Source: an uncultured Lachnospiraceae bacterium (lineage in GTDB: Bacteria; Bacillota; Clostridia; Lachnospirales; Lachnospiraceae). From it: a DNA stretch of 64,000 nucleotides. Of this stretch, positions 1-15,223 are shown one piece after another. Each line of letters begins with the position of its first letter. The first letter of the stretch is position 1. The translations under genes were made by a program, and so were the position numbers. The stretch spans positions 66,367 to 130,366 of the forward strand of contig CANOVJ010000002.1 in the NCBI GenBank assembly GCA_947570615.1. The letters are read 5' to 3'. The notes under the pieces were generated by a model, which saw only the letters and a list, made by a program, of their open reading frames with translations, did not search any database and was not told where the DNA came from.

Positions 1-2
1 AG

Positions 3-869
3 ACCCTGGATACGGTGCGGGGGCTTTACACCTTTCTGATCGGGGAAAAGTTTGACCGCAGGGATCTTCTCATCGCCCTGGGGGGCGGCGTGGTGGGGGA
101 TCTCACCGGTTTTGCGGCGGCCACCTATTTAAGAGGGATCGATTTCGTACAGATTCCCACTACGCTCCTGGCCCAGGCGGATTCCGCCATCGGCGGCAAG
201 ACAGGAGTCGATTTCGACGGATATAAAAATATGGTCGGCGCCTTTTATATGCCCCGTCTGGTGTATATGAATGTCAAAACCCTGAAAACACTGGATGACC
301 GGCAGTTTTTCAGCGGCTTTGCGGAGATTATGAAGCACGGGCTGATCAAAGACGCGCTTTTCTACGAATGGCTTCTGGATCATATGTATGAGATCTGCGA
401 CCGGGAGGAGGAGACGCTGCTGGAGATGGTGGAGCGGAGCTGTACCATCAAAAAGCTGGTGGTGGAAAAGGATCCCCTGGAAAAGGGCGATCGTGCGCTT
501 CTCAATTTCGGCCATACCATAGGACATGCCATCGAAAAGGCAGTAAACTTTACCCTCACCCACGGAGAATGCGTCACTCTCGGAGCCGTGGCGGCAGCTT
601 TTATCTCCTGGAAGCATGAATGGCTCTCCATGGAGGAATACTATGAGATAAGAGATATGTTTGTGCCCTTTAACCTGCCGATCTCCATCGAGAATATCGA
701 TCCGCAGGAAGTCTTAAGACTCACCAGATCCGATAAGAAGATGGAGGGAGACAGTATTAAGTTTGTCCTTCTCAAAAAGGTGGGAAAGGCGCTGATCGAC
801 AGAACTGTCACGGACGAGGATATTCTGAACGCCATCTCTGAAATCCATTATGTGGAGGATGATGAATAA
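3..869 (+). CDS. aroB: 3-dehydroquinate synthase (5' end outside window)
   Basis: Motifs ALGGGVVGDLTGFAAATYLRG, PTTLLAQ.DSAIGGKTG, LNFGHTIGHAIE; frame is open to the left edge. Confidence 0.93.
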   Translation, partial: TLDTVRGLYTFLIGEKFDRRDLLIALGGGVVGDLTGFAAATYLRGIDFVQIPTTLLAQADSAIGGKTGVDFDGYKNMVGAFYMPRLVYMNVKTLKTLDDRQFFSGFAEIMKHGLIKDALFYEWLLDHMYEICDREEETLLEMVERSCTIKKLVVEKDPLEKGDRALLNFGHTIGHAIEKAVNFTLTHGECVTLGAVAAAFISWKHEWLSMEEYYEIRDMFVPFNLPISIENIDPQEVLRLTRSDKKMEGDSIKFVLLKKVGKALIDRTVTDEDILNAISEIHYVEDDE

Positions 870-894
870 CGGGGAAAGGAGCCCGGCTGCAGCT

Positions 895-1428
895 ATGGAA
901 AGACGTAAAGCCAGATTACTGCTTTTTGATTTTTTAGTGACAACGGCGCTGGTGCTGTTCGACCAGCTCACCAAGTATATGGCCGTGGAAAGACTGAAGG
1001 ACCAGCCTGCCATTTCCCTGATCGACGGCGTTCTCTCGCTCCAGTATCTGGAGAATAAGGGAGCGGCCTTCGGCCTTCTGCAGAATCAGAAGTATTTCTT
1101 CGTGGCAGTGGCAGTATTGTTTCTCTGTGTGATTGCCTGCGTCCTGGTCAAAGCGCCTGCGGAGCGAAAATATGACCGGCTGAATATCCTTCTTGCGGTG
1201 ATTGCCGCGGGAGCGCTGGGGAATCTGATCGACCGGCTGCGCCTTGACTATGTGGTGGATTTTATTTATATTGTGTTGATCAATTTCCCCATCTTCAATG
1301 TGGCGGATATGTATGTGACCTTTTCCGCCGCGCTCCTGGTTATTCAGGTGTTGTTCGTATATCAGGATGAGGATTTTACCTTTTTAAGTTTTCGAAAAAA
1401 GAAGGTATTTGAGAATGGAAAAACTTGA
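895..1428 (+). CDS. lspA: Lipoprotein signal peptidase II
   Basis: DQLTK, NKGAAFG, GALGNLIDR, VVDFI, FNVAD motifs; start chosen at ATG 895 behind ggaaaggag. Confidence 0.92.
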   Translation: MERRKARLLLFDFLVTTALVLFDQLTKYMAVERLKDQPAISLIDGVLSLQYLENKGAAFGLLQNQKYFFVAVAVLFLCVIACVLVKAPAERKYDRLNILLAVIAAGALGNLIDRLRLDYVVDFIYIVLINFPIFNVADMYVTFSAALLVIQVLFVYQDEDFTFLSFRKKKVFENGKT

Positions 1429-2344
1429 TGATTTTTCTTTCACGGTAACAGAAGATCTGCTTCCCCCCGGCGGGGAGGATGAGAGAGTGGACAAGGTGGT
1501 AAGCAGTTTTGCAGACGCCCTGTCCCGTTCTTATATTCAGAAGCTTCTGGCGCAGGGAAGCATCACGGTAAACGGGAAAAGGGTGAAATCCAGCTTCCGC
1601 GTGGGGGCGGAGGATCAGATTTCGATCCGCCTCCCGCAGGCCGTCACACCGGACATCGAGCCGGAGGATATACCGCTCTGTGTCCTCTATGAGGATCAGG
1701 ATGTGATCGTAGTGGACAAGCCCAAGAATATGGTGGTACATCCGGCTCCCGGTCATTACAGCGGCACGCTGGTGAACGCGCTTTTGTATCACTGCCGGGG
1801 GAATCTGAGCGGGATCAACGGAATCCTGCGCCCCGGGATCGTGCATCGGATTGACCGCGATACCACGGGTTCCGTGATTGCGTGCAAAAATGACAGGGCC
1901 CATGAGAGTATCGCGAAGCAGCTTAAGGCGCACAGTATTGTGCGGCGGTATCACGCGATTGTACACGGGGTTCTAAAGGAGGACGGGACCGTTCATACCC
2001 TGATCGGCAGGCATCCCACGGATCGCAAAAAAATGGCGGTTCTCTCCGGCGGCGGGAAGGACGCCGTTACCCATTACAGGATACTGAAGCAGTATGACAG
2101 GTTCACCTATATTGAATGCGCTCTGGAGACCGGGCGCACCCATCAGATCAGAGTCCATATGGCACATATCGGTCATCCTCTGCTGGGAGATACGGTATAC
2201 GGGCCAAAGAGCTGTCCCTTTTCGCTGGAGGGGCAGACCCTTCACGCAAAAATACTCGGGTTTTTGCATCCGGCTACGGGAGAATATGTGGAGGTGGACG
2301 CGCCCCTTCCGGCATACTTTCAGGAATTGCTTCGCAAAATCTGA
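1415..2344 (+). CDS. rluD: RluA/RluD family pseudouridine synthase
   Basis: N-terminal S4-like segment, RPGIVHRIDRDTTG catalytic motif, LETGRTHQIRVH. Confidence 0.88.
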   Translation: MEKLDDFSFTVTEDLLPPGGEDERVDKVVSSFADALSRSYIQKLLAQGSITVNGKRVKSSFRVGAEDQISIRLPQAVTPDIEPEDIPLCVLYEDQDVIVVDKPKNMVVHPAPGHYSGTLVNALLYHCRGNLSGINGILRPGIVHRIDRDTTGSVIACKNDRAHESIAKQLKAHSIVRRYHAIVHGVLKEDGTVHTLIGRHPTDRKKMAVLSGGGKDAVTHYRILKQYDRFTYIECALETGRTHQIRVHMAHIGHPLLGDTVYGPKSCPFSLEGQTLHAKILGFLHPATGEYVEVDAPLPAYFQELLRKI

Positions 2345-2382
2345 TTGAAACGATTAATATTTGTGAATATGCTTAAGGATGA

Positions 2383-2411
2383 TTGAATTATTCCCCCTTT
2401 TTATGTATAAT
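2383..2411 (+). promoter_or_regulatory. Sigma-A type promoter of the cytidylate kinase-like gene
   Basis: TTGAAT-17 bp-TATAAT upstream of RBS caggagg. Confidence 0.65.
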
Positions 2412-2461
2412 AATAACATAAGATAAGTTTCTCTGAAATAAAAAAGACAGGAGGCGTTTAT

Positions 2462-3085
2462 ATGAATACAGTTGTGACGATTGGCCGTCAGTTTGGCTCG
2501 GGCGGGCGTGAAATCGGCGAAAAGGTTGCGGAGTATTTTGGGATTAAGTGCTATGACAAGGAGCTCCTGAGCAGAGCCGCGAAGGAAAGCGGATTCTGCG
2601 AGGAAATGCTGGAGAATCATGACGAGAGGCCTACCAGTTCCTTTCTCTATAATCTGGTAATGGATACGTATTCCTTCGGCTATAATGCGTCGCATTTTGT
2701 GGAGATGCCTATCAGCCATAAGGTTTTTCTGGCACAGTTTGATACCATCAAGAAAATCGCTCAGGAGGAGCCCTGTGTGATCGTCGGTCGCTGTGCGGAT
2801 TATGCGCTCAGCGAAATGAAAAACTGCGTACATTTGTTCATCTATGCGGATGAGGAAAGCAAAACCAGGCGGATCATGAAAAAATATGATCTGGATATAG
2901 CCAGGGCCAAGGACATGTGCATCAAAAAAGACAAACAGCGCCAAAGCTATTATAATTATTATTCCTCCAAAAAATGGGGACGCGCCGACAGCTACGACCT
3001 GTGTATCAACAGCGGAGTTCTCGGCGTGGAAGGCACGGCGAAGCTGATTATCCAGTATATAGAGGATTTTGAAAACCGAAAATGA
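2462..3085 (+). CDS. Cytidylate kinase-like family protein
   Basis: VTIGRQFGSGG P-loop, VIVGRCADY, YDLCINS motifs. Confidence 0.85.
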   Translation: MNTVVTIGRQFGSGGREIGEKVAEYFGIKCYDKELLSRAAKESGFCEEMLENHDERPTSSFLYNLVMDTYSFGYNASHFVEMPISHKVFLAQFDTIKKIAQEEPCVIVGRCADYALSEMKNCVHLFIYADEESKTRRIMKKYDLDIARAKDMCIKKDKQRQSYYNYYSSKKWGRADSYDLCINSGVLGVEGTAKLIIQYIEDFENRK

Positions 3086-3123
3086 GAGCCGGATGAGGCG
3101 ATGCGGGCAGCCAGGTATGGCAT

Positions 3124-3161
3124 CCAACTATTCGCAAAACACAAGTTTAACGAATAGTTGG
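3124..3161. repeat. Intergenic inverted repeat (terminator or REP-like)
   Basis: ccaactattcg-16 nt-cgaatagttgg, perfect 11-bp arms. Confidence 0.6.
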
Positions 3162-3265
3162 CACGATAAAGCAGTTTTGAGTTTATATTATTTCTTAATA
3201 ACGTTTGCTCTTGCCCGTTGAACCTGAGCTTATAATAACGGTTATGAAAGGAGCTATTTATTGTC

Positions 3266-4186
3266 ATGAAAAGATTATTTGCATTCGCCCTTGCCGCAGT
3301 AGTTTTTGCGTCGTCCCCGGTCAGCGCGCTCGCGGCTCCGGAGACAATGCCCGGCGGGGAAACCTTCGACGCGGAGTTCTACGCCCGCAACAATCCGGAT
3401 GTGGTAGCCGCCCTCGGCACGGATACGGCGGCTCTTTACGGACATTACGTCAACCATGGTAAGGGGGAAGGCAGAAAGCCTTTTGCAGATGCGCCTGCAA
3501 AGACTTCGCAGGCCGTACCCGCAGGGAATGAGAACTTTGACGCCGGATATTATGCCCGCAACAATCCGGATGTGGCAGCCGCCCTTGGCACGGATGAGAC
3601 TGCTCTTTATAATCATTATATCAATTATGGTCGCGCGGAAGGACGAAAGCCCTGTGGAACCGCCGCCAATACGCCTGCTCCTGCGCAGACCGCGCAGCAG
3701 ACTGTGGTTACGGATCAGTTCCTCAAGGATGCCGTAAGGGTTCATAATTACTACAAAAATATTCCCGCAGAAGGGATTGATACGGCGGACGCCGTGGCAA
3801 AGCAGATTGCCGATTCAATTATGGGAAACGCCGCATATACCACAGACCTGCAGCGTGTGAGCGCTGCGGCCGAGACAGTGGCCGGTTATTGTAACAGTTG
3901 TATTTATGGCTCTGACAGTCAGAAGTATTACCGCTCTCCCTTCGGCGTATTTGTGGCGGGGGTCTATACCTGTGCCGGATCCACAAGGGCTCTTGGAAGA
4001 GTTCTGGATTATATGGGATTTACCTGGCAGCACACGAATGAAAACCAGAATCGTCATCAGTGGTGTATTGTGACCATGGACGGACAGACCGGTTTCGCAG
4101 ATGGCATGGGCGGAATCGCGGGATATGGCGCCATGGAAAACGGAATGATATTGCCGGACGGCAGAATGATCTTTTTTGCTGAATAA
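3266..4186 (+). CDS. Secreted protein with two ~40-aa repeats and a transglutaminase-like C-terminal domain
   Basis: Signal peptide MKRLFAFALAAVVFASSPVSALA; repeat FDAxxYARNNPDVxAALGTD...HYxNxGxxEGRKP twice; YTCAG...HQW...DG Cys/His/Asp pattern. Confidence 0.65.
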   Translation: MKRLFAFALAAVVFASSPVSALAAPETMPGGETFDAEFYARNNPDVVAALGTDTAALYGHYVNHGKGEGRKPFADAPAKTSQAVPAGNENFDAGYYARNNPDVAAALGTDETALYNHYINYGRAEGRKPCGTAANTPAPAQTAQQTVVTDQFLKDAVRVHNYYKNIPAEGIDTADAVAKQIADSIMGNAAYTTDLQRVSAAAETVAGYCNSCIYGSDSQKYYRSPFGVFVAGVYTCAGSTRALGRVLDYMGFTWQHTNENQNRHQWCIVTMDGQTGFADGMGGIAGYGAMENGMILPDGRMIFFAE

Positions 4187-4216
4187 AGTCTGACAGTCCA
4201 AAGCCTGGCAGGCAAA

Positions 4217-4257
4217 CGGAGTAAGTTTACATAATAATATTATGTAAACTTACTCCG
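4217..4257. repeat. 41-bp palindrome containing two dif-type (TTATGTAAACT) arms
   Basis: cggagtaagtttacataat-aat-attatgtaaacttactccg; the 14 nt at 4237-4250 match the right end of B. subtilis dif as I recall it (ATATTATGTAAACT). Confidence 0.7.
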
Positions 4258-4270
4258 GATATACCGGCGG

Positions 4271-4549
4271 CTATCTGTCCTGCCCTCTCTTCCGCTTTCC
4301 CGGCGGATCGCTTCCCTCCTTCAAAAACTCGCTTTTCTCCACAAAATCAACGGAACTGTTGTATTTACTCTGGTATCTGGTATAACCCTGGGGCAGATCT
4401 GTTTTTTCCTGTAAGGATTTTTCCAGATATCTCTTTCGAAATTCCTTTACCGTATCGATCTGATTATTCTTTTTCCTTCTGTGCCTGATAAATGTATAGG
4501 CGTATACGACAATCAGAAAAGCGCCGACTCCGATCAGGGCATATTTCAT
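4271..4549 (-). CDS. Small hypothetical protein with N-terminal membrane anchor
   Basis: MKYALIGVGAFLIVVYAYTFI hydrophobic start, RBS ggagagg. Confidence 0.65.
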   Translation of the reverse strand: MKYALIGVGAFLIVVYAYTFIRHRRKKNNQIDTVKEFRKRYLEKSLQEKTDLPQGYTRYQSKYNSSVDFVEKSEFLKEGSDPPGKRKRGQDR

Positions 4550-4569
4550 ACAAATTCTCCTCTCCAATG

Positions 4570-5031
4570 CTATGGCATATTACCGGTCAGTTCATCCGAG
4601 TCCAGGGTCACTGTGAAAGGCCCGTCATTCACAAGAGAAACCTCCATGTGTGCTCCGAAAACGCCATGGGCCACGTGAGGGATTTCCTCCCTGCATTTTC
4701 TGAGGATATATTCGTACATTTCGTTGGCGAAATCCGGCCTGCCTGCCCTGATAAAGGATGGCCGGTTTCCCTTCCGGCAGTCCGCATATAAGGTAAACTG
4801 CGAAATAATCAGCAATTCGCCGTTTACAGCCCCGATGTCCAGGTTGGTTTTTCCGTTCTCATCTGAAAATATCCGCAGATGAAGCAGCTTGTGTATCATT
4901 CTGTCCGCAATTTCCTGTGTGTCGGTGTCGCAGATCCCGGCCAGAACCAGAAGCCCTGCGGAAATCTCTCCCACACTCTCTCCCTCCGCGGCCACTCTGG
5001 CCTGACTGACTCTCTGTATCACAAATCTCAT
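4570..5031 (-). CDS. dtd: D-aminoacyl-tRNA deacylase
   Basis: MRFVIQRV start, SQFTL and NDGPFT motifs. Confidence 0.93.
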   Translation of the reverse strand: MRFVIQRVSQARVAAEGESVGEISAGLLVLAGICDTDTQEIADRMIHKLLHLRIFSDENGKTNLDIGAVNGELLIISQFTLYADCRKGNRPSFIRAGRPDFANEMYEYILRKCREEIPHVAHGVFGAHMEVSLVNDGPFTVTLDSDELTGNMP

Positions 5032-5091
5032 ATTTATAACCATGCTCCTTTCCAAAGTGTGGGGACAAAAAGTCTTTCAAAACAGAGTCCT

Positions 5092-5748
5092 TCAGACTGA
5101 CCACCGGATCCATTTATGTCCTTCGGGGTACATAACTGTCAGGGCGTCATTCAGCCAGCTCCTCTGCCGGCTGCTCATGGCGGCAACGGCATTGTCATAG
5201 TCGCTCTGATACCCTTCCCTTTCGGTATCTGTGGACTTATAAAGCAGACACATCTCCGGCGACAGATACGGCAGACTGCCGTTATATAATACAGCGTCGG
5301 ATACTGCCTGTCGGATCGTATGATTGCGCGCATACAGCAGGTCCTTATCGTCTCTGTCGTTGAATAAGAATTCCATAAAATTCAGCTTTGTCAGTCCTGT
5401 GTGCCTGAAATCGAGGAAATACATATCTGCTTCATCCGCCGCATTTAAGCATACCAGCTCACAGTCCTGCGTACAGCAGAAAATGTTTCGTTTAAGTCTG
5501 ATCTGATTGCTGATATCGGTAATATGATGGACCTTTCCGCCTCCGAGCATTTCATATACCTGAAGCCCCAGCGATTGCATATACTGAATAATTGTGTCGC
5601 GTTCCGGCCAGTATGCAAGAATATCGATGTCACCATGTTTTCGCGTCTCTCTTCCCAAAAATAAATCAATGGCCCATCCGCCACAGAAGGCATACTCAAA
5701 ACCGTGATTCTGCAAAAGCTCATTTGCCTGGATTAGAAGATTGTTCAT
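5092..5748 (-). CDS. Nucleotidyltransferase, ANT(2'')/Lnu-like family
   Basis: CGGWAIDLFLGRETRKHGDIDI metal-binding motif; LSPEMCLLYK C-terminal motif. Confidence 0.7.
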   Translation of the reverse strand: MNNLLIQANELLQNHGFEYAFCGGWAIDLFLGRETRKHGDIDILAYWPERDTIIQYMQSLGLQVYEMLGGGKVHHITDISNQIRLKRNIFCCTQDCELVCLNAADEADMYFLDFRHTGLTKLNFMEFLFNDRDDKDLLYARNHTIRQAVSDAVLYNGSLPYLSPEMCLLYKSTDTEREGYQSDYDNAVAAMSSRQRSWLNDALTVMYPEGHKWIRWSV

Positions 5749-5771
5749 GCTGTCACCTCACTTTTTTCAGG

Positions 5772-7109
5772 TTATGATTTCCTCTGTTCAGAATTTCGTC
5801 CGGCGGAAATGTTCTTTTTCGGGCGACCGAAAATTTTCAGGCGTCTGAAAAGAGAACCGCCTCCGACCTTTTCTTCTATGGGGACGAAGACATCCTCATC
5901 AATGTAATCTACTTTCAGATAACGGTCGGTCTCCACCGGTAACCCTCTCCTCTCAAGCATATGATTTGTCATCCTGCGGATCATGGCATAAAGCACCGCA
6001 AAGAAAGGAACACCGATAATCATACCGGGAACCCCGAGGATTCCGCCAAAGATGGTGATGGAAAAAATCACCCAGAAGCCTGACAGGCCTGTGGACTGGC
6101 CAAGAATCTTGGGCCCGATCAGGTTTCCGTCCACCTGCTGAAGAACCAGGATAAAGATTACAAAGTAGATCGCCTGAACGGGATTTACCATCAGAATCAG
6201 GATCGTGCTCGGAACCGCCCCCAGGTAGGGGCCAAAAAACGGGATTACGTTCGTCACGCCGATAATCACGCTGATCAGCAGAGCATAGGGCATTTTAAGG
6301 ATGGTCGTTCCCGCAAAGCAGATGACGCCGATAATGATGGAATCAATGATCTTTCCGCTGATAAAGCCGATAAAGGTATCGCTGATGAAACGGATATCCT
6401 TAATAAACTGATTGGCTGTTTTCGTGTTAAAGAGCGCGAACACGATTTTTTTTGCCTGTCCGGCATGGAGCTCCTTGTTATAGAGTACATAAATGGAGAT
6501 AATCACCCCGATAATAATATTCCAGAGCGCTTTGAGCACGCCGATCATACTCATTGAGAGCTGCTTTACCAGCGTCTCCATCTGCGGAATGATACTGCCG
6601 TTCAGATACCGGGTAAACTCCTCCGAATATTCGTCCAGAATCCGGATCACCATTTTTTCAATATCCGGATTGTCCTCCAGAAAACGGGCGGACCAGTTGG
6701 TCAGATTCTCAACATAGTCAGGGAACTGACTGGCAATGCTTCGTATACTCGTGATAATATTGGGAATCAGAATGGAAAAAAATCCGTAAATCAGCCAGAT
6801 CACAATCAGTACCGTGATAAAAACAGAACATGCGCGCATATATTTTTTCTGTTTTGGAGGGACAGAGTCTTTATCCCTCTGCCAGAGGGGTAACAGAAGA
6901 CGCTTTTCGATTCCGTTGACCATTGGGGTCATGAGGTAGGCAAAGATAATTCCGGAAAGCACCGGGCTGATCACCCTGAAAAAAGAGTCAAGCTGGGCGG
7001 AAAACCGGTCTCCGTGGAATACAAGATAATAAAAACAGATAGACGCCGCTACAACTGTAAAGGCGGTGATACCGATACGAAAGTATCTTTTGTTAAATGG
7101 AAATTTCAT
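5772..7109 (-). CDS. AI-2E family transporter
   Basis: Multi-TM; NVIPFFGPYLG, QQVDGNLIGPKILG, GVPGMIIGVP motifs. Confidence 0.88.
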   Translation of the reverse strand: MKFPFNKRYFRIGITAFTVVAASICFYYLVFHGDRFSAQLDSFFRVISPVLSGIIFAYLMTPMVNGIEKRLLLPLWQRDKDSVPPKQKKYMRACSVFITVLIVIWLIYGFFSILIPNIITSIRSIASQFPDYVENLTNWSARFLEDNPDIEKMVIRILDEYSEEFTRYLNGSIIPQMETLVKQLSMSMIGVLKALWNIIIGVIISIYVLYNKELHAGQAKKIVFALFNTKTANQFIKDIRFISDTFIGFISGKIIDSIIIGVICFAGTTILKMPYALLISVIIGVTNVIPFFGPYLGAVPSTILILMVNPVQAIYFVIFILVLQQVDGNLIGPKILGQSTGLSGFWVIFSITIFGGILGVPGMIIGVPFFAVLYAMIRRMTNHMLERRGLPVETDRYLKVDYIDEDVFVPIEEKVGGGSLFRRLKIFGRPKKNISAGRNSEQRKS

Positions 7110-7266
7110 GGGAAAGCTCCTTTGTGCGTTTAAATCCTCTCCTTTTAAGTATAGCATTTTTTTCAAAAAGATACTATGTTATTTGGCGGGAAATGTGGTA
7201 AAATTAAGGGCGGTTCCACACAGAAGGAGCCTTATGTCAAAAGAAATACCTCCGGGAGGAAGAATA

Positions 7267-8112
7267 TTGAATCTGCAAAAGGTACTGAGCTTCGTCCGCC
7301 GCGCGGTGGATGATTATCATATGATAGAAAAGGGCGATCACATCGCGGTGGGAATTTCGGGGGGGAAGGACAGTCTGACGCTTCTTTATGCCCTGCACGG
7401 TCTGATGCGTTTTTACCCGGAGGATTTTACCATTCACGCTGTGACCGTGGATCTGGGGTTTGGCAATCAGGATCTGACGAAAATCGAAGCGCTTTGCGTC
7501 CGGCTCGCCGTTCCCTACACCATTGTAAGGACGGATATTGCGGACATTGTTTTTCAGGAGAGAAAAGAAAGCAATCCCTGTTCTCTGTGTGCGAAGATGC
7601 GCAAGGGCGCGTTAAACGAAGCGATCAAAAAGGCCGGCTGTAACAAAGTCGCCTATGCCCATCACAGGGATGATGTGGTGGAAACCATGATAATGTCGCT
7701 GATTTATGAGGGAAGATTCCACACCTTCCGCCCGGTCACCTATCTGGACCGAATGGATCTGACGGTGATCCGGCCGCTGATCTACATGAATGAGGCGGAT
7801 GTGATCGGTTTCGTCAATAAGATGCAGCTTCCTGTGGTAAAGAGCCCCTGCCCGGCGGACGGCAGCACCAAACGGGAATACGCCAAAGAGCTGGTGAGAA
7901 GGATCAATCAGGACAGCCCCGGCGCAAAAATGAGGATGTTCACAGCCATTCAGAGCAGCGGCATCGACGGGTGGGAAACAAACGCTGTCACGCTCCGCGA
8001 GCCAGCTTATTGTAATAAATGTCAGCGAGCCGGAGACTCCTCTGCCGCCCTCTCCCGCAGAGCGGGATCAAAGAAAGGCATAAAAGATGGAAAACAGCAA
8101 AAATTATCATGA
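7267..8112 (+). CDS. ttcA: TtcA-family tRNA thiolation PP-loop ATPase (atypical C-terminal extension)
   Basis: SGGKDS PP-loop, PCSLC, AHHRDD, SPCP motifs; TTG start behind gggagga. Confidence 0.82.
   Translation: MNLQKVLSFVRRAVDDYHMIEKGDHIAVGISGGKDSLTLLYALHGLMRFYPEDFTIHAVTVDLGFGNQDLTKIEALCVRLAVPYTIVRTDIADIVFQERKESNPCSLCAKMRKGALNEAIKKAGCNKVAYAHHRDDVVETMIMSLIYEGRFHTFRPVTYLDRMDLTVIRPLIYMNEADVIGFVNKMQLPVVKSPCPADGSTKREYAKELVRRINQDSPGAKMRMFTAIQSSGIDGWETNAVTLREPAYCNKCQRAGDSSAALSRRAGSKKGIKDGKQQKLS
7978..8013 (+). repeat. Dispersed REP-like element, copy 1
   Basis: acaaacgctgtcacgctccgcgagccagcttattgt; differs from copy 5 at one base. Confidence 0.75.
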
Positions 8113-9145
8113 CGAACAGAATAATCTCAATACATTGAAGATGAGGGAAGTGGTGGCTACTCTCCCATCCTTCTGTAAGCAGTTTTTCCGGGGAATACAG
8201 GAGTATACCTCCTCCCGCACCAGGCTTGCCTACGCCTATGATATCCGGGTTTTTTTTGAGTTTATACATACCGCCAACAGTGCCTGCAGGAGCATGAATA
8301 TCACAGATTTCCCGCTGTCGATTCTGGACATGATTACCCGCGAGGATATCGAGGAATATCTGGAATATATCACTTATTATGTGAAGGACAACAAAGAGTA
8401 CAGTAACAATGAGCGCGGAAAAAAGAGAAAGCTCTCTGCTCTTAAGAGTTTTTATAATTATTTTTTCTGTGAGGAGCTCATAAAGACCAATCCGGCTGCT
8501 CTGGTGCCTCTTCCCAAAGAGCACGAAAAGGAAATCGTCCGCCTGGATATCGACGAGGTCGCTATTTTGCTGGATCAGGTGGAGGAGGGAGATAAACTCA
8601 CCAAAAGCCAGCTCAAATATCATCAGAAAACCAGGCTGCGGGATGTGGCTCTTCTGACGTTACTTCTCGGGACCGGGATACGTGTCTCAGAGTGTGTAGG
8701 CCTTGACATAAACGATGTGGATTTCCGGAATAACGGCATTAAAATAAGAAGAAAGGGCGGCTATGAAACCGTCGTCTATTTCGGCGGGGAGGTGGAGGAA
8801 GCCCTCGGCGATTATCTGGAAAAAAGAAGCCATATGATTCCGCTGCAGGGACATGAGGACGCTCTGTTCCTTTCCCTGCAGAACCGGCGGATCAGCGTCC
8901 GGGCCGTGGAAAATCTGGTGAAAAAATATGCTTCCACTGTGACGAGCCTGAAAAAGATCACCCCGCATAAGCTCAGAAGCACCTATGGCACTGCGCTCTA
9001 TCGCGAGACCGGAGATATCTACCTGGTGGCCGATGTATTGGGCCATAAGGATGTTAATACGACCCGGAAGCACTATGCCGCGCTGGAGGATCAGAGGCGC
9101 AGAAGAGCGGCTAAAGCTGTCCAGCTCCGGGAGAAACAGGACTGA
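8087..9145 (+). CDS. Tyrosine recombinase, Xer family (XerS-like N-terminus)
   Basis: Catalytic set R (GIRVSE), K (RRKG), HxxR (PHKLR), H (LGH), Y (RKHY); 352 aa; no phage or ICE genes nearby. Confidence 0.85.
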   Translation: MENSKNYHDEQNNLNTLKMREVVATLPSFCKQFFRGIQEYTSSRTRLAYAYDIRVFFEFIHTANSACRSMNITDFPLSILDMITREDIEEYLEYITYYVKDNKEYSNNERGKKRKLSALKSFYNYFFCEELIKTNPAALVPLPKEHEKEIVRLDIDEVAILLDQVEEGDKLTKSQLKYHQKTRLRDVALLTLLLGTGIRVSECVGLDINDVDFRNNGIKIRRKGGYETVVYFGGEVEEALGDYLEKRSHMIPLQGHEDALFLSLQNRRISVRAVENLVKKYASTVTSLKKITPHKLRSTYGTALYRETGDIYLVADVLGHKDVNTTRKHYAALEDQRRRRAAKAVQLREKQD

Positions 9146-9527
9146 CAGCAACGTTTCCGGCCGCTGACAGAGGGCGATAATAAGGAAGAATCAGGTACTG
9201 CCCTGCGGCGATATTCTCATCCCGCAGGGAGTTGATCTCCATCACCTCCTCTATATACTCTCCATTGCTTTCGTAATATCGGCGGTCGCCGTATTGGCAG
9301 GCATAGCTCCACAGCGTATCCCCTGTCTGCACCTGGATACTGGTGTAATATTTGGACAATGCTTTGTTTTCGTTGCCCTGAGCCCTGATCCGAAGGCTGA
9401 AAAATGTGGACAGAAAAAGCGCTGTCATCAGCAGGATCAGCGCCCCTGCTCTCCTGCGGCGTTTCAACTCTCTTCTTCTGCGGATTCTGTTATTTTGTAT
9501 CCTCTGTTCACTCAGACTGGTATTCAT
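9111..9527 (-). CDS. yneA: LysM-domain membrane protein, YneA-like SOS cell-division inhibitor
   Basis: Basic N-terminus, one TM helix, LysM (VQTGDTLWSYA...IAAGQYLILP); divergent from lexA. Confidence 0.72.
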   Translation of the reverse strand: MNTSLSEQRIQNNRIRRRRELKRRRRAGALILLMTALFLSTFFSLRIRAQGNENKALSKYYTSIQVQTGDTLWSYACQYGDRRYYESNGEYIEEVMEINSLRDENIAAGQYLILPYYRPLSAAGNVAVSPVSPGAGQL

Positions 9528-9550
9528 CCTGTGTATCTCCCCATAAAACG

Positions 9551-9674
9551 AAATATTTGTTTTGGGAACATGTGTTGCGAACATTTGTTTTTATAACTGA
9601 ATTATACCGAACACACATTCCTGTGTCAATAGATTTTCAGTAAAATATCGAACAAATATTTGGAATATACGTTT
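9551..9674. promoter_or_regulatory. Cluster of LexA (GAAC-N4-GTTC type) operators
   Basis: gaacatgtgttg 9566, gaacatttgttt 9579, gaacacacattc 9609, gaacaaatattt 9650, gaatatacgttt 9663. Confidence 0.75.
9601..9629 (-). promoter_or_regulatory. Sigma-A promoter of the yneA-like gene
   Basis: Minus strand TTGACA-17 bp-TATAAT with an SOS box in the spacer. Confidence 0.8.
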
Positions 9675-9701
9675 GTCTTTTTGGAGGAAATGTGTTATAC
9701 T
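9673..9701 (+). promoter_or_regulatory. Sigma-A promoter of lexA
   Basis: TTGTCT-17 bp-TATACT with TG extended -10. Confidence 0.65.
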
Positions 9702-9739
9702 GAATAAAACCCAGATTACATACGCAAGGGAGGAATACC

Positions 9740-10357
9740 ATGGGATATGGAAAGATAAGCAGTAAACAGCAGGAGATCCTCGATTATATTAAGGAAGAAA
9801 TTTTAAAACGGGGATATCCGCCCTCAGTCCGGGAAATCTGTGAGGCGGTCCACCTTAAGTCAACCTCCTCCGTACACTCTCATCTGGAGACTCTCGAGAA
9901 GAACGGCTACATCCGCAGGGATCCCACCAAGCCCCGCGCCATCGAGATCTGCGACGACAATTTCCAGATGGTCCGTACCGAAATGGTCAGCCTTCCGATT
10001 ATTGGCCGGGTTGCCGCCGGCACGCCGATTCTCGCGGAAGAGAATGTGGAGAGCTATTTTCCGGTTCCGGCGGAAATGGTTCCTCACGGCGAATCCTTCA
10101 TCTTAAATGTGAAGGGCGATTCCATGATCAATGCAGGCATCCTCAGCGGGGACAGGATCTTTGTCAACGCCTGCTCTGCCGCGCACAATGGCGATATGGT
10201 GGTAGCGCTGATCGATGATTCGGCGACGGTTAAGACCTTTTACAGGGAGGATGGACATATTCGCCTGCAGCCGGAAAATGATACCATGGATCCGATTATT
10301 GTGGACGACTGCCAGATCCTTGGGAAGGTTTTCGGCGTATTCCGCCTGTTTCATTGA
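9740..10357 (+). CDS. lexA: SOS repressor LexA
   Basis: GYPPSVREI wHTH, VAAG autocleavage site, GDSM (Ser), ATVK (Lys). Confidence 0.96.
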
Positions 10358-10511
10358 AATTTTAAGCGAAACCTTTCAATAAAATTTTCAATGAAATAAT
10401 AACCTGAAATCCCATTTAGTGGACAACTCCGCCTCCGTATAATATCTTCAATATGGGCGAAAATAAAACTGATGGCTCACAGCCTTAAAAAGATTTATGG
10501 AGGTGCAGAAA

Positions 10512-10736
10512 ATGAACAATAAATGTCTCGACTGCATCGCACTTACAATCGCCATTATAGGTGCGGTCAACTGGGGGTTAATCGGATTCTTTTCCTTTGA
10601 CCTGGTGTCCTTTATCTTTGGTAATATGTCATGGATTGCAAGAATCGTCTATGCGCTTGTGGGAATCAGCGGCCTTTACCTGCTTACATTCTATATGTAC
10701 GCGGGAGGCACGGCCCGGACACGGGAAGAAAGCTAA
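10512..10736 (+). CDS. DUF378 family small membrane protein
   Basis: IIGAVNWGLIGFF.FDLV...RIVYALVGISGL signature. Confidence 0.85.
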   Translation: MNNKCLDCIALTIAIIGAVNWGLIGFFSFDLVSFIFGNMSWIARIVYALVGISGLYLLTFYMYAGGTARTREES

Positions 10737-10748
10737 AGGATTTGAAAT

Positions 10749-10832
10749 GGATCTGCAAATCCGGCAAAGAGAAATCCGGCAGAGATACCGTTCTTTGCCG
10801 GACGGATTCTCTGTCGGGTTTGTGGCAGATCC
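10749..10832. terminator. Long nested hairpin between convergent genes
   Basis: ggatctgc...gcagatcc outer arms; tccggcagaga/tctttgccgga inner stem. Confidence 0.55.
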
Positions 10833-10838
10833 GGATTG

Positions 10839-11249
10839 TTATTTTTTCAATTCTTCAATATCAATGGTTTTTCCATCGAACCAGAGTCTCTCCAGATCAT
10901 AAAAGAGACGGTTTTCCTTATCGAAAATATGGATGATGATATCCCCGAAATCCAGCAGCACCCAGTTGGCGTTGTGATAGCCTTCCTTCTGCTTCAGGGG
11001 ATAGCCTGCCCTTCCCAGGGTTTCCTCCACCTCGTCTGAGAGCGTCTGGATCTGATTTCTGTTGTTGCCGTTCGCAATGATGAAATAGTCTGCGATCACG
11101 GAAACCTGGCTGATATCAATGACGCGGATATCCTCCGCCTTCTTCTCCTCCAGCGCATGGATGGCCGTCCGGGCCATCTTCTTTACCTGTGTATGCAGTG
11201 AATCCGAAGGGTGCTCTATCGGTTGGTTTTTTTCGGATGATTCTGACAT
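10839..11249 (-). CDS. rsfS: Ribosome silencing factor
   Basis: KKAEDI, ADYFIIANG, WVLLDFGDIIIHIF, FYDLERLW; RBS aggaggt. Confidence 0.92.
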   Translation of the reverse strand: MSESSEKNQPIEHPSDSLHTQVKKMARTAIHALEEKKAEDIRVIDISQVSVIADYFIIANGNNRNQIQTLSDEVEETLGRAGYPLKQKEGYHNANWVLLDFGDIIIHIFDKENRLFYDLERLWFDGKTIDIEELKK

Positions 11250-11851
11250 TTTTTACCTCCTGCTTTCGCATCTTCAATCTGATCGGTTACATAATAGTCG
11301 TAGGTCGCCTGCGTCATGGGATCAAAAGGGAAATCCATACCCTGCAGGTAATCCAGCGTATCCTTAAGGATCTGTAAAAGCGCCCTGTCGATATCCTGAA
11401 AGGCGAGTCTGCGTATGGCGGACAGGCCCGGGGCCTGCTTTCTTCCGGGTTCGATATAATCGGAAATATAGATAATCTTCTCAAGGCGGGACATTCCCGG
11501 CCTTCCGGTCGTGTGATTTCTGATCGCATTCAGAATATCCTCGTCATGGATGTGATATTTTTTCCGGGCGATATAGCTTCCCACCTTTGCATGCAGAAGA
11601 AAGGGGTTCTGACGCTCCACCTCAGTTACGGGGATCCGGTGCTTTTCACAGATTTCCAGCTTCTTTTCATTACTCATACATTTGGCGCAGTCGTGCAGCA
11701 TTCCGGCCAGAAGGGCCCTCTCGGCATCCTCCTGATGACACATGGCAAGGGAGGATGCCGTGTAGGCCACCCCCAGGGTGTGTTCAAAACGTTTCGCATC
11801 CAGTTCCTTTTCCAGCCTGTGACGGATTTTTTTCAGATCGATCTCTTTCAT
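11216..11851 (-). CDS. yqeK: HD-domain Ap4A hydrolase YqeK
   Basis: RFEHTLGV, LLAGMLHDCAK, HTTG, YISDYIEPGR; follows nadD. Confidence 0.9.
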   Translation of the reverse strand: MKEIDLKKIRHRLEKELDAKRFEHTLGVAYTASSLAMCHQEDAERALLAGMLHDCAKCMSNEKKLEICEKHRIPVTEVERQNPFLLHAKVGSYIARKKYHIHDEDILNAIRNHTTGRPGMSRLEKIIYISDYIEPGRKQAPGLSAIRRLAFQDIDRALLQILKDTLDYLQGMDFPFDPMTQATYDYYVTDQIEDAKAGGKKCQNHPKKTNR

Positions 11852-11865
11852 AACGCCTCCCACCC

Positions 11866-12570
11866 TTATCGATAAAGTCCGTTTTTATTGATAAATTCCA
11901 GCACGTTTTCGGGGAGCATATAGCGGACAGACCTTCCCTCCCGAAGCCGGGTTCTGATTTCCGTGGAGGAAAGATCAATCCGCCTTCCCGGAAGAAGCCT
12001 GATATCGGCCTGATATTTCTGCCGAAGGTGCGCCGCCATGCCCTCCACCGTATTTGGCGCTTCCTTCTTACCGCCGCCCTCCACCCGCATGGCGGCCGCA
12101 ATCGCACAGTTTTGAAAAATAAATTCCGGATTCCTCCACTTTTCCAGGATAAAGAGATTGTCCGCCCCGAGGATCAGATAATATCGGATATCCGGATTTT
12201 CCGCCCGCAGTCCGGCAAGGGTATCGCATGTATAGGTGGGTCCCTCTCTCTCGAGCTCTCTGGCTGAAAAGGAAAAGCATGGATTCCCTTCTATGGCCAG
12301 TCTGGTCATATGGGCCCGTATCTGTCCGTCCAGAATGGCGGAGGCATCCTTCATATACGAGTTCCCGCTGGGCATAAAAATAATCCGGTCGAGCCCTAAC
12401 GCCTCCCGGGCCATCTCGGCAAGCAGCAGATGGCCGTTGTGGACGGGATTGAAGGTTCCTCCCATAATTCCCACGTTTCTGACGGCGGGGATATGCTGAA
12501 TATCGGTTTCAGGACAGACCTGCCAGGCAGGCTGTGTGTTATTGCGGATCGCCTTATTCTGGCAGTTCAA
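11866..12570 (-). CDS. nadD: Nicotinate-nucleotide adenylyltransferase
   Basis: GGTFNPVHNGH, TYTCDTL, GADNL, LSSTEIR. Confidence 0.92.
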   Translation of the reverse strand: MNCQNKAIRNNTQPAWQVCPETDIQHIPAVRNVGIMGGTFNPVHNGHLLLAEMAREALGLDRIIFMPSGNSYMKDASAILDGQIRAHMTRLAIEGNPCFSFSARELEREGPTYTCDTLAGLRAENPDIRYYLILGADNLFILEKWRNPEFIFQNCAIAAAMRVEGGGKKEAPNTVEGMAAHLRQKYQADIRLLPGRRIDLSSTEIRTRLREGRSVRYMLPENVLEFINKNGLYR

Positions 12571-12844
12571 TTTTTTTGTGCTCCCTGCTTTCTTTATATA
12601 ATACGATTTTACGGCCGATCACCTGCACCACCGCAGAGCCTGTCCGGTCGGCGATAAAGCCCGCAATCTGCCTGGGATCCTCCATACAGTTTTTAAGCAC
12701 GGAGAGCTTGACAAGCTCTCTGGTATTGAAGGTTTCCCGGACCGCCTCCGTCACCTCCGGCGTCAGCCCGGATTTGCCGATCGCAAAGACCGGCTCCAGG
12801 CCCGCGGCCAGTCCTTTTAAATATGCCCGCTGTTTTGTCGTCAT
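12554..12844 (-). CDS. yhbY: RNA-binding protein YhbY (CRM domain)
   Basis: KQRAYLKGLA, IGKSG, RELVK, VQVIGRKIVLY. Confidence 0.92.
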   Translation of the reverse strand: MTTKQRAYLKGLAAGLEPVFAIGKSGLTPEVTEAVRETFNTRELVKLSVLKNCMEDPRQIAGFIADRTGSAVVQVIGRKIVLYKESREHKKIELPE

Positions 12845-12853
12845 TGATCTCTC

Positions 12854-14198
<1,345 letters not shown>

Positions 14199-14210
14199 TA
14201 TTGTAAAAAG

Positions 14211-14242
14211 AGGCTTCAAACAAGAAATACTGTTTGAAGCCT
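14211..14242 (-). terminator. Intrinsic terminator after rpmA
   Basis: aggcttcaaaca-8 nt-tgtttgaagcct with a T-run following on the minus strand. Confidence 0.7.
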
Positions 14243-14293
14243 GCCCGTTGCTTAACCTGGAAATATCCGGAAAAGCCGGATCTCCATCGTCTG

Positions 14294-14578
14294 TTATTTT
14301 TCTACAGGATATACGGAAGCCTGTTTCTTGTCTCTTCCTTTTCTCTCGAATCTGAGAACTCCGTCAACCAACGCAAACAATGTATCGTCGCCGCCACGTC
14401 CTACGTTTGTGCCGGGATGGATCTTCGTTCCGCGCTGCCTGTACAAAATATTTCCTGCCTTTACGAACTGGCCGTCGGCTCTCTTGGCGCCAAGTCGCTT
14501 GGACTCGGAATCTCTGCCGTTCTTGGTGGAACCAACACCTTTTTTATGAGCAAAAAATTGAAGGTTCAGCTTTAACAT
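14294..14578 (-). CDS. rpmA: 50S ribosomal protein L27 (with N-terminal pro-peptide)
   Basis: [24 protein letters not shown]. Confidence 0.98.
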
Positions 14579-14581
14579 GAT

Positions 14582-14911
14582 TTACACCTCCTTAAATTTC
14601 AGTCTTAAAAACTTTTTGCCGTACTGCTCTGCGACGCTCTGCAATCCCAGAACCATGGAATCGAGAAGAAGTCTGCCGCCTGCGTCGGGGCCGCCTGTAA
14701 AACGGCACCGGATCAGTCCACGCTTCCGGTCGCTTACGGTCTCCATCTGCGTATCCGTCAGCTTCTCCAGAGAATTGACGGTATTGATCACCAGCACGGA
14801 GACGGCGCTGCACACAATGTCGCTCCCCGCCTGTGCAAATCCCGCATGGCCCTCACAGATCATCTCCCTGTATTCCCCGTCTGTGGATCTGATTATGGTA
14901 ATAACAGTCAT
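14582..14911 (-). CDS. prp: Ribosomal-processing cysteine protease Prp
   Basis: GHAG and DIVCSAVS motifs, located between rplU and rpmA. Confidence 0.92.
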   Translation of the reverse strand: MTVITIIRSTDGEYREMICEGHAGFAQAGSDIVCSAVSVLVINTVNSLEKLTDTQMETVSDRKRGLIRCRFTGGPDAGGRLLLDSMVLGLQSVAEQYGKKFLRLKFKEV

Positions 14912-14917
14912 ACTCTT

Positions 14918-15223
14918 TTAAGCGTTGATCTTTTCAATCTTAACCTGTGTGTATGCCTGCCTGTGACCGTTTTTCTTATGATAACCGGTTTTTCTCTTAT
15001 ACTTGTAGACAATAACCTTGCGGCCTCTGCCCTGCTCGATCACAGATGCAGTCACGCTGGAATTGGCTACGTCGCCGGCAACCTTAAGCTCATTGTCGCT
15101 GATTGCGACAACCTGATCAAATGTCACAGTATCTCCCGGCTGTGCGTCGAGCTTTTCAACCTTAAGCACATCGCCCTCACAAACCTTATACTGCTTTCCA
15201 CCTGTTGCAATGATTGCGTACAT
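14918..15223 (-). CDS. rplU: 50S ribosomal protein L21
   Basis: MYAIIATGGKQYKV...GHRQAYT. Confidence 0.98.
   Translation of the reverse strand: MYAIIATGGKQYKVCEGDVLKVEKLDAQPGDTVTFDQVVAISDNELKVAGDVANSSVTASVIEQGRGRKVIVYKYKRKTGYHKKNGHRQAYTQVKIEKINA

Follow-up and report, generated by a model that had tools for sequence, protein, structure and literature searches.

A palindrome with XerD-type arms and a separate candidate dif site in the terminus region of an uncultured Lachnospiraceae bacterium

Introduction

The stretch of DNA considered here, 64,000 nucleotides (64 kb) from an uncultured Lachnospiraceae bacterium and called the window below, contains a perfect palindrome at positions 4217–4257. 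Its arms resemble one arm of dif, the terminus site at which Xer recombinases unlink chromosome dimers, and a gene for a Xer-family tyrosine recombinase lies in the same region, at 8087–9145. A first-pass annotation, made from the sequence, proposed that the palindrome is the dif site of this adjacent Xer. The question raised by the locus is whether this is so. The analysis presented here indicates that the dimer-resolution site is most likely a different sequence, at 3128–3157, which is used by mobile elements, and that the palindrome is a second terminus element, tentatively a docking site for a XerD-type protein.

In Bacillus subtilis, XerD binds dif-like sites in the terminus, named XDS, and unloads SMC complexes there (PMC11840125, PMC10945525). 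Among 100 single-chromosome genomes of Firmicutes, 97 have a predicted dif site (Kono et al., 2011; PMC3025954). In the portion of the table considered from that study, the canonical 28-bp dif is predicted in every Bacillus genome. The predictions for Clostridium botulinum lie 137–176 degrees from the skew switch, and Eubacterium, Roseburia and Butyrivibrio are absent from the supplementary tables. A literature search for the Xer/dif system of the Lachnospiraceae found no description of one.

The argument rests on three features of the window:

4217–4257, no strand: perfect palindrome, two inverted XerD-type half-sites AGTTTACATAA / TTATGTAAACT, 5 bp apart
3128–3157, plus strand: candidate true dif, CTATTCGCAAAA-CACAAG-TTTAACGAATAG, with an extended form AACTATTCGCAAAACACAAGTTTAACGAATAGTT at 3126–3159
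8087–9145, plus strand: Xer-family tyrosine recombinase, non-canonical, 352 amino acids (aa), with the Pfam Phage_integrase domain and a SAM-like N-terminal domain

Results

The palindrome

The palindrome reads CGGAGTAAGTTTACATAATA-A-TATTATGTAAACTTACTCCG, which is 41 bp arranged as 20+1+20, with arms that are 100% complementary and a single nucleotide between them. Its core consists of AGTTTACATAA (4224–4234), TAATA and TTATGTAAACT (4240–4250), and outside these half-sites it is lengthened by six further complementary pairs, CGGAGT/ACTCCG. The 11-mer TTATGTAAACT is found in both palindrome arms and nowhere else in the 64 kb, even when one mismatch is allowed. The 25-mer GTTTACATAA-N5-TTATGTAAAC, with up to three mismatches, has one match in the window and none in 100 shuffles. 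The identical 41-mer is present in six independent assemblies of the same species, and metagenome contigs span the palindrome without differences. The 5-bp spacer is therefore real and not a sequencing error, and chance or assembly error as the source of the palindrome is ruled out by its uniqueness, the shuffles, the six assemblies and the metagenome contigs. An Rfam search of window positions 1–15000 gave no match at gathering score.

To this extent the first-pass annotation was correct. The palindrome with dif-like arms around a taata core is as described, and the spacer length, for which it had asked a check, is upheld. Its statement that the arm is the conserved right arm of Bacillus-type dif also holds for TTATGTAAACT, which is the conserved right arm of the predicted Firmicutes dif in Kono et al. 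(2011).

The palindrome departs from dif in its centre. Two inverted arms of about 11 bp, as bound by a recombinase at dif, are present in perfect form (AGTTTACATAA / TTATGTAAACT), but the centre, which in dif measures 6–8 bp (11 bp in difSL), is 5 bp in the window and in at least 76 related sites.

A candidate dif at 3128–3157

The site at 3128–3157 lies between a cytidylate-kinase-like gene and a gene for a protein of 306 aa. It was found via gut metagenome contigs, in which the 34 bp at 3126–3159 stand at 5–15 times the depth of their flanks and are common to many unrelated contigs. Sites of this type also emerged, as a CTATTCG motif, from a de novo search for another palindrome common to 80 metagenome loci that had been picked by a Xer orthologue only (62–86% identity) and not by motif, referred to below as the Xer-selected loci. 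We call them CTATTCG sites.

The window reads AACTATTCGCAAAA-CACAAG-TTTAACGAATAGTT at 3126–3159. The 30-bp form has arms of 12–14 bp with two differences between them (CTATTCGCAAAA versus CTATTCGTTAAA) and an asymmetric, conserved 6-bp centre. The consensus from 55 unique instances is AACTATTCGCAAAA-SACAAG-TTTAACGAATAGTT, with C/G-ACAAG as the centre. The centre is 6 bp in essentially all intact instances, and the few matches with 7–8 bp are degenerate or hybrid. The site is unique in the window, and none of 100 shuffles matches it.

The site and the Xer gene are closely linked. When as many as four mismatches are allowed, 43 of the 80 Xer-selected loci contain it, including 24 of the 32 that have at least 6 kb of upstream sequence. 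It is upstream of the Xer orthologue at 42 of 44 sites, at distances from 16 bp to 8 kb (within 160 bp at seven of them, and 4.9 kb in the window). In 31 of 32 loci GC skew is higher to the left than to the right of the site, the mean difference being 0.129. There is one copy per locus, save where an element has integrated. On the chromosome of Lacrimispora sinapis it is at 50.11% of the record, a position which, like that given below for the palindrome, presumes that the record starts near oriC.

The Xer recombinase is not a standard member of any of the named families. Its NCBIfam scores are 192 bits for XerS, 177 for XerA, 174 for XerC and 158 for XerD, each below the cut-off, so that even XerS, the best model, falls short of its threshold of 267 bits. 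The nearest solved structures are XerA and XerD, and public sources call it a 'tyrosine-type recombinase/integrase', nothing more specific. Residues R199, K223, H294, R297, H320 and Y330, which we take to be the catalytic residues of tyrosine recombinases, are invariant among 11 orthologues (59–87% identical). The protein looks catalytically intact in its residues and resembles the recombinase of a single-recombinase system. There is no other tyrosine recombinase in the window, and it is the probable single dimer resolvase. Among the Xer-selected loci, 14 of the 23 long ones have a switch from positive to negative skew at the Xer gene. A canonical 28-bp dif was sought with a matrix made from 15 predicted Firmicutes dif sites, on which real sites score 32–47 bits and shuffles at most 10.5. 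None was found, the best scores being 6.9 bits in the window and 19.5 in the Xer-selected loci.

Mobile elements at the candidate dif

Three empty/occupied polymorphisms were found, all of which start at or within a site of the 3128–3157 type (numbers beginning with L are our handles for loci and contigs). In the window's own species, one metagenome-assembled genome (MAG) has a 2.75-kb insertion (L003, about 690–3400; L128, 12333–15070) that is absent from other assemblies (L129 and others). At the left junction in L128 foreign DNA follows an intact site; at the right one the site is a hybrid, …GTTTTCGCGAAA-CACGACAAG-TTTAACGAATAGTTGG…, with its right arm and flank derived from the chromosome. 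The plasmid-like element codes for a Mob_Pre relaxase and a faintly RepL-like protein. As a caveat for this element, Pre/Mob proteins have historically been called plasmid recombination enzymes. In the second case the site in L209 is empty and that in L205 (42–6500) is occupied by an element of 6.45 kb that encodes a G2P-type rolling-circle Rep. The two sequences become homologous again within the central region, and a hybrid site is found at the far end. In the third, L201 and L202 cease to match exactly at the site, and it is L201 that has a Rep homologue there. The elements of these last two cases are filamentous-phage-like. A recombinase domain was sought in the L128 and L205 elements and none was found. 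The hybrid junctions, which share an arm, point to exchange within the candidate dif, and an intact site paired with a hybrid one is the signature of elements that would integrate via the host Xer.

Phages provide further examples. In two IMG/VR contigs (L134, L137), inovirus-like genes (G2P Rep, Zot-like) end at a CTATTCG site, 535 bp before the palindrome, and are followed by a Xer orthologue (65% identical); both contigs end inside the phage, so that the second prophage end lies outside them. The exact sequence CTATTCGCAAAA-N6-TTTAACGAATAG is found in 41 viral contigs of IMG/VR (L225–L265), 4.7–80 kb in length, at least six of which have inovirus-type genes. Large contigs, of 47–64 kb, are included among them. 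Across several Lachnospiraceae, L188 and L166 among them, filamentous-phage-like elements (G2P rolling-circle Rep, Zot-like ATPase) are integrated at or beside a CTATTCG site near Xer.

The palindrome gave no such result. No insertion polymorphism was found at it in same-species or metagenome contigs (four gut metagenomes), and the search for metagenome junctions returned only contigs of other organisms that share a 31-bp core. With every empty/occupied pair starting at the other site, the palindrome does not behave as an attachment site for integrative mobile elements exploiting Xer (IMEX). The site at 3128–3157 combines what is expected of a single-recombinase site: its arms enclose a 6-bp centre, it is linked to xer, it lies where the skew switches, and elements that integrate there leave an intact site at one end and a hybrid at the other. 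On this sequence evidence it is most likely where the window Xer unlinks chromosome dimers. Apparently it has not been described before.

The palindrome in other genomes

One genome per species was scanned for exact GTTTACATAA-N3-8-TTATGTAAAC, which gave at least 119 stretches with at least 123 sites. At least 76 of these have a 5-bp spacer (a 10+5+10 core) and are mostly from Lachnospiraceae, with others in Tissierellia and in Bacillaceae (L011, L050, L051, L072, L111). At least 41 have a 6-bp spacer and come from Paenibacillus, Streptococcus, Gemella and others. The 5-bp spacer of the listed sites is 93% A/T but variable in sequence. Core variants in L149/L151 (GTTTACGTAA/TTATGTTAAC), L212 and L213 alter the arms without compensation, which suggests that a protein reads the arms as sequence and not as a stem.

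In about 35 listed Lachnospiraceae loci the palindrome is in the aroB–cmk / dtd–xer–lexA / rsfS–obg neighbourhood, usually at a gene convergence. The gap that it occupies differs, being between lexA and rsfS, xer and dtd, nadD and obg, dtd and the AI-2E transporter gene, or lexA and cmk. In at least 10 species a Xer orthologue is 0.04–4 kb away. The complete chromosome of L. sinapis (3,753,647 bp) has one copy among the matches listed, at about 1,886,343, which is 50.25% of the record. Left minus right skew is positive at 82% of 55 palindrome sites among the matches listed.

There are also contexts other than the xer neighbourhood that have no local skew switch, in which the palindrome separates mutS from mutL or follows a gene for a hisF-hisIE fusion. 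Such contexts are conserved in some Lachnospiraceae (between mutS and mutL or after mutL, and after hisF-hisIE: L044, L053, L095, L104; L013, L020, L063, L081). A few MAGs have 2–3 copies, including one with two (L061, L091). The first-pass annotation had asked whether the motif is a single copy at the terminus. It is indeed unique in the window and listed once in L. sinapis, but the other contexts, and two MAGs with 2–3 copies, do not fit that picture. In the Lachnospiraceae MAG CAZUCI01 a repeat of at least 270 bp is present three times (L022, 5331–5595; L024, 3958–4222; L102, 7086–7350), each time enclosing a palindrome. The repeat also holds a further XerD half-site, three hairpins whose stems are TTTCGATATA/TATATCGAAA, and tandem repeats of 15 bp that are degenerate; it may be a mobile or regulatory element.

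In Streptococcus varani (L039) a 6-bp XerD-box palindrome (3927–3952), difSL (4549–4579, one mismatch) and xerS (4618–5703) are found together in 1.8 kb. The palindrome is about 0.6 kb from difSL, which is directly upstream of a bona fide xerS (550 bits). This two-site layout parallels that of the window.

Some further arrangements of these palindromes are worth recording. XerS-family genes beyond the streptococci, in Anaerobacillus (L042, 5691–6856, 398 bits) and Gemella (L018 and L120), are 43–300 bp from a 6-bp XerD-box palindrome, with no difSL-like sequence found near these genes, and there the palindrome may be a genuine symmetric dif of a single Xer. In a Tissierella MAG (L028) two 5-bp palindromes (1428 and 4253) flank xer-lexA, with spacers GATAA and TTATA that are near reverse complements, and the pair could permit inversion of the xer-lexA segment. 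In Paenibacillus (L049, palindromes at 3412 and 5696; L031; L110) a distinct tyrosine recombinase of about 320 aa is between or beside 6-bp palindromes, which may represent an invertible or excisable cassette. In a Eubacterium sp. MAG (L062) the 6-bp palindromes at 2124 and 4279 have near-identical flanks and are directly upstream of the ribosome-binding sites of two minus-strand genes, a position that looks operator-like in that organism.

Relation between the two sites

The palindrome is on the TTTAACGAATAG side of the candidate dif in 16 of 17 loci, and the distance ranges from 9 bp (L149/L151) to 5.5 kb. The window sites are 1,068 bp apart, with the 306-aa gene between them; this gene is absent in the relatives with the two sites 9 bp apart. 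The genes between the two sites point to the palindrome, and it is therefore the palindrome, not the candidate dif, that marks the convergence of transcription. The arms of the two sites share 8 of 14 positions, which makes it unlikely that one protein reads both.

Hairpin and terminator features

As RNA, the palindrome stem has a predicted stability of -35.3 kcal/mol (z = -6.0). The flanks lengthen the palindromes by a mean of 3.7 perfect pairs, compared to 0.36 at random control positions, and these extending sequences vary even between close relatives. Outward extension of a palindrome is also possible without selection, by template-switch mutation at quasi-palindromes. Of 65 sites with a 5-bp spacer, none is between divergent genes, 46 are between co-directional and 19 between convergent genes, based on crude calls of open reading frames. 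A T-tract follows the stem in 34% of palindromes, as against 11% of controls. Hairpin potential and a position at gene 3' ends are favoured on account of the flank extension, the lack of divergent gaps and the excess of T-tracts. These observations agree in part with the first-pass suggestion that the site could double as a bidirectional terminator. The window copy itself has no T-tract, and a terminator scan does not call it, the U-tract of an intrinsic terminator being missing. Sequencing runs labelled RNA-Seq have a depth that is flat across genes and spacers, as for DNA, and are uninformative on termination.

Genes and GC skew around the sites

The palindrome is 31 nt past the stop of the plus-strand gene 3266–4186 and 14 nt from the stop of the minus-strand gene 4271–4549. 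The neighbouring features referred to here are:

3266–4186, plus strand: 306-aa gene, function not assigned; no family at curated cut-off, TetR_N match below threshold
4271–4549, minus strand: 92-aa gene, function not assigned; converges on the palindrome and is called in same-species contigs
4570–5031, minus strand: dtd, Pfam Tyr_Deacylase, next after the 92-aa gene
7267–8112, plus strand: ttcA-like tRNA thiolase gene, conserved neighbour of xer and immediately upstream of it
9111–9527, minus strand: yneA-like LysM gene, conserved terminus-side neighbour of xer in Lachnospiraceae
9740–10357, plus strand: lexA, conserved terminus-side neighbour of xer in Lachnospiraceae, also in Tissierellia

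To the left of the palindrome, aroB, lspA, rluD, the cytidylate-kinase-like gene and the 306-aa gene are all on the plus strand. To its right, the 92-aa gene, dtd, a nucleotidyltransferase gene and an AI-2E transporter gene are all on the minus strand. These are followed by the ttcA-like gene and the tyrosine recombinase (both plus), the yneA-like gene (minus), lexA and a DUF378 gene (both plus), and then rsfS, yqeK, nadD and obg, from where genes are almost all on the minus strand. When 9 kb of extra left flank is included, every called gene in the 13 kb to the left of the palindrome is on the plus strand (a penicillin-binding protein gene, minCDE, rodA, sepF and others). GC skew over the same 13 kb is +0.07 to +0.15, right up to the palindrome. 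To the right there is first a mixed zone at 4–11 kb, which includes a local positive stretch at 6–10.5 kb, and then negative skew from about 11 kb up to 64 kb. The change of gene orientation noted in the first-pass annotation, all plus to the left and mostly minus to the right, is thus extended by the longer flank and accompanied by a flip in skew, and the window is the terminus region, as pictured there. Because xer is consistently linked to lexA, the SOS regulator is encoded at the terminus beside the probable dimer resolvase.

In the same part of the window, the 30 bp at the start of dtd (5028–5057) also occur, in three of four metagenomes (X1, X2, X20), in another contig whose flanks differ.

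Discussion

Comparison with known Xer sites

The canonical Firmicutes dif, ACTTCCTATAA-TATATA-TTATGTAAACT, is served by XerC/CodV and XerD/RipX. The palindrome resembles it in the identical right arm, the A/T-rich centre and the terminus location. It differs in that both of its arms are XerD-type, whereas the canonical XerC arm equals the inverted XerD arm in 7 of 11 positions; in a spacer of 5 and not 6 bp; in its extension 6–9 bp past the arms; and in a matrix score of 6.9 bits, against 32–47 for real dif. It can also be likened to the XDS of B. subtilis, these being dif-like terminus sequences distinct from dif that carry a XerD half-site. The palindrome likewise has a XerD half-site, is in the terminus region and is distinct from the candidate dif. 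The difference is that a single non-canonical Xer, not XerCD, appears to resolve dimers here.

The candidate dif is best compared with the sites of single recombinases. The difSL/XerS system of streptococci and lactococci has in common with it a single recombinase of about 350 aa for which XerS is the best model, linkage of the site to xer, and arms of the form ...CGnAAAA / TTTTnnG.... However, the window Xer scores 192 bits against a cut-off of 267 and is 28% identical to true XerS, the centre is 6 and not 11 bp, and the sequences differ. In S. varani, moreover, the XerD-box palindrome is an element separate from difSL, 0.6 kb away. Both difH/XerH of Helicobacter and Campylobacter and dif/XerA of archaea have a single recombinase, near-palindromic arms and a centre of about 6 bp; difH and haloarchaeal dif are linked to the xer gene, and XerA is the closest solved structure to the window Xer. 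They differ in arm sequence, and perfect 20-nt arms or a 5-bp spacer are not described for any of them. The dif/XerL system of Legionellales was discovered through an integrating element, LME-1 (PMC9765430). The logic is the same, in that a terminus site is revealed by an integrase-less element which leaves one intact and one modified site. The phylum, the recombinase clade and the site sequence differ, and the site at 3128–3157 is known here from its sequence.

Intrinsic terminators share with the palindrome a stable hairpin just past stop codons, in convergent or co-directional gaps. The window palindrome differs from them in having no U-tract, and the apical 25 nt are conserved across families, unlike those of terminators.

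The favoured reading of the palindrome

Palindromes of this class coexist with canonical dif in Bacillaceae, with difSL/xerS in S. varani and with the CTATTCG site in Lachnospiraceae, and the class is therefore separate from the dimer-resolution site. Because it is separable in this way, and because the XDS of B. subtilis are known, we favour, tentatively and at somewhat less than even confidence, the reading that the palindrome is a XerD-type docking site and, lying between converging genes, forms a hairpin as well. A dimer of a XerD-type protein would dock on the two inverted XerD-type half-sites, with their 5-bp spacing, without productive recombination. The docking would resemble that at XDS, where XerD unloads SMC complexes, a function which, as Karaboja and colleagues are said to have found in 2021, needs neither XerC, nor dif, nor catalysis. 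The analysis establishes the anatomy of the palindrome, its conservation and terminus location, and a separate candidate dif that mobile elements use, whereas the identity of the binding protein and the effect of its binding are inferred. A long perfect palindrome between converging genes would form a strong hairpin, which could stop or pause transcription from both sides. Dimer resolution would occur at 3128–3157, by the Xer encoded at 8087–9145, and the palindrome would be a second and separate terminus landmark. The two sites may have been adjacent ancestrally. DNA that integrates at dif would leave an intact site on one side, and cargo fixed between dif and the palindrome would push the two apart; the 306-aa gene may be such cargo.

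Several observations weigh against this. Neither the window nor about 1.7 Mb of related loci showed a xerD-type gene. The likeness to XDS is drawn from descriptions of those sites, in respect of the XerD half-site and the terminus location. The window palindrome has no T-tract on either strand, the downstream sequences being GATATACC and TTTGCCTG. Within the flanks covered, only about 7 of the 80 Xer-selected loci contain a palindrome when four mismatches or fewer are tolerated, so that it is no obligatory partner of the candidate dif. Spacers of 5, 6 or 7 bp are found among related palindromes, which would be uncommon where a dimer binds a rigid site. Palindromes of this class are 1 to about 1000 bp from a Xer-family gene in Tissierellia, a Ruminococcus MAG, Anaerobacillus and Gemella, and no other dif-like site was found at these loci. 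In those lineages, where the spacer is mostly 6 bp, the palindrome may be a true single-Xer dif, and the class is for that reason possibly able to recombine.

Alternative explanations

The original proposal, that the palindrome is the dif of the adjacent Xer, which would bind its identical arms as a homodimer and resolve dimers there, now appears very unlikely indeed. Much of what suggested it stands: the XerD-type arms, the conservation in Lachnospiraceae, the single non-canonical Xer, uniqueness in the window at the flip of orientation and skew, a Xer orthologue 0.04–4 kb away in at least 10 species, and the one listed copy at 50.25% of the L. sinapis record. But the Xer orthologue is far more tightly linked to the site with the 6-bp centre at the skew switch, which is the better candidate, and all three empty/occupied polymorphisms are at that site and none at the palindrome. 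Also against it are the 5-bp spacing, the absence of insertion polymorphism, the unrelated contexts, the coexistence with canonical dif and difSL/XerS, and arms that share only 8 of 14 positions with those of the candidate dif. A strict module of palindrome and Xer can be rejected, with palindromes in about 7 of 80 Xer-selected loci. An unlikely alternative is that the palindrome serves a second Xer, a XerC/D-like protein of about 328 aa as found beside palindromes and lexA in Tissierellia and Ruminococcus, so that Lachnospiraceae would have two Xer/dif systems at the terminus. The palindrome begins 1 bp past the Xer stop in L064 and L118, and is 0.4–1.2 kb from the Xer gene in L017, L019, L028 and L067 (with lexA adjoining Xer in L017, L028 and L067); two palindromes flank xer-lexA in L028; and versions with 5–7 bp are present on some phage-like contigs. 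However, none of the Lachnospiraceae loci examined showed such a second recombinase gene, no insertion or inversion polymorphism was found at the palindrome in same-species or metagenome contigs, and 5 bp is outside the 6–8-bp overlap known for tyrosine recombinases (PMC5357621).

If the palindrome were essentially a bidirectional terminator or insulator hairpin between converging operons, its conserved apical sequence would either be a matter of descent or be maintained by something other than Xer proteins. This would explain why it is always intergenic and near 3' ends (none of 65 between divergent genes), has a species-specific stem extension, folds very stably and is followed by T-tracts three times more often than controls. 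We nevertheless consider it rather unlikely. Twenty identical apical bases across families and orders are more than a terminator needs, the core variants are non-compensatory, the T-tract is absent in the window copy and in two thirds of the others, several copies are between co-directional genes (for example mutS and mutL, or nadD and obg), and the extension could arise unselected through template switching. A small mobile or relic element with no present host function, such as a miniature inverted-repeat transposable element or a leftover attachment site, is a highly improbable account. It could draw on the three copies in repeats of at least 270 bp with further hairpins in CAZUCI01, the two copies in another MAG (L061, L091), and the different intergenic gaps occupied in different species. 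Against it are the single copy in the window and, among the matches listed, also in Mb-scale contigs and one complete genome, the strong bias in position to terminus neighbourhoods, and the conservation of the arms across orders. Two further ideas were set aside. A polar fork trap, in the manner of a Tus/RTP-type Ter site, is not expected because the palindrome is perfectly symmetric, although no search for a terminator-protein homologue was made. An operator of the upstream 306-aa gene does not fit either, since the palindrome is downstream of that gene, there are relatives that have the palindrome but lack the gene, and the TetR_N match of the 306-aa product is below threshold.

Significance

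Taken more broadly, we would give about an even chance that Lachnospiraceae have an undescribed single-recombinase system, consisting of a XerS-like Xer of 352 aa and the site AACTATTCGCAAAA-SACAAG-TTTAACGAATAGTT (3126–3159, 30–34 bp), which is hijacked by integrase-less filamentous phages and a small mobilisable plasmid. The XerD-box palindrome would be a separate polar companion that marks convergence and docks a XerD-type protein, in a two-site layout also found in S. varani. By itself the palindrome is a moderately interesting and apparently undescribed variant of the XerD-box terminus site. The Xer/dif module, with its hijacking by filamentous phages and a small plasmid, is the more valuable result.

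A strong likeness to the XerD arm of dif is evidently insufficient for calling a dif. If the proposed system is correct, the dimer-resolution site and recombinase of a major gut family would become directly testable. Filamentous phages and small plasmids would have there a well-defined hot spot for integration, useful for calling prophage boundaries and perhaps also for genetic engineering. Across Firmicutes, XerD-box palindromes would mark the terminus whatever the dimer-resolution system, which would bear on SMC unloading and on the organisation of the terminus beyond Bacillus.

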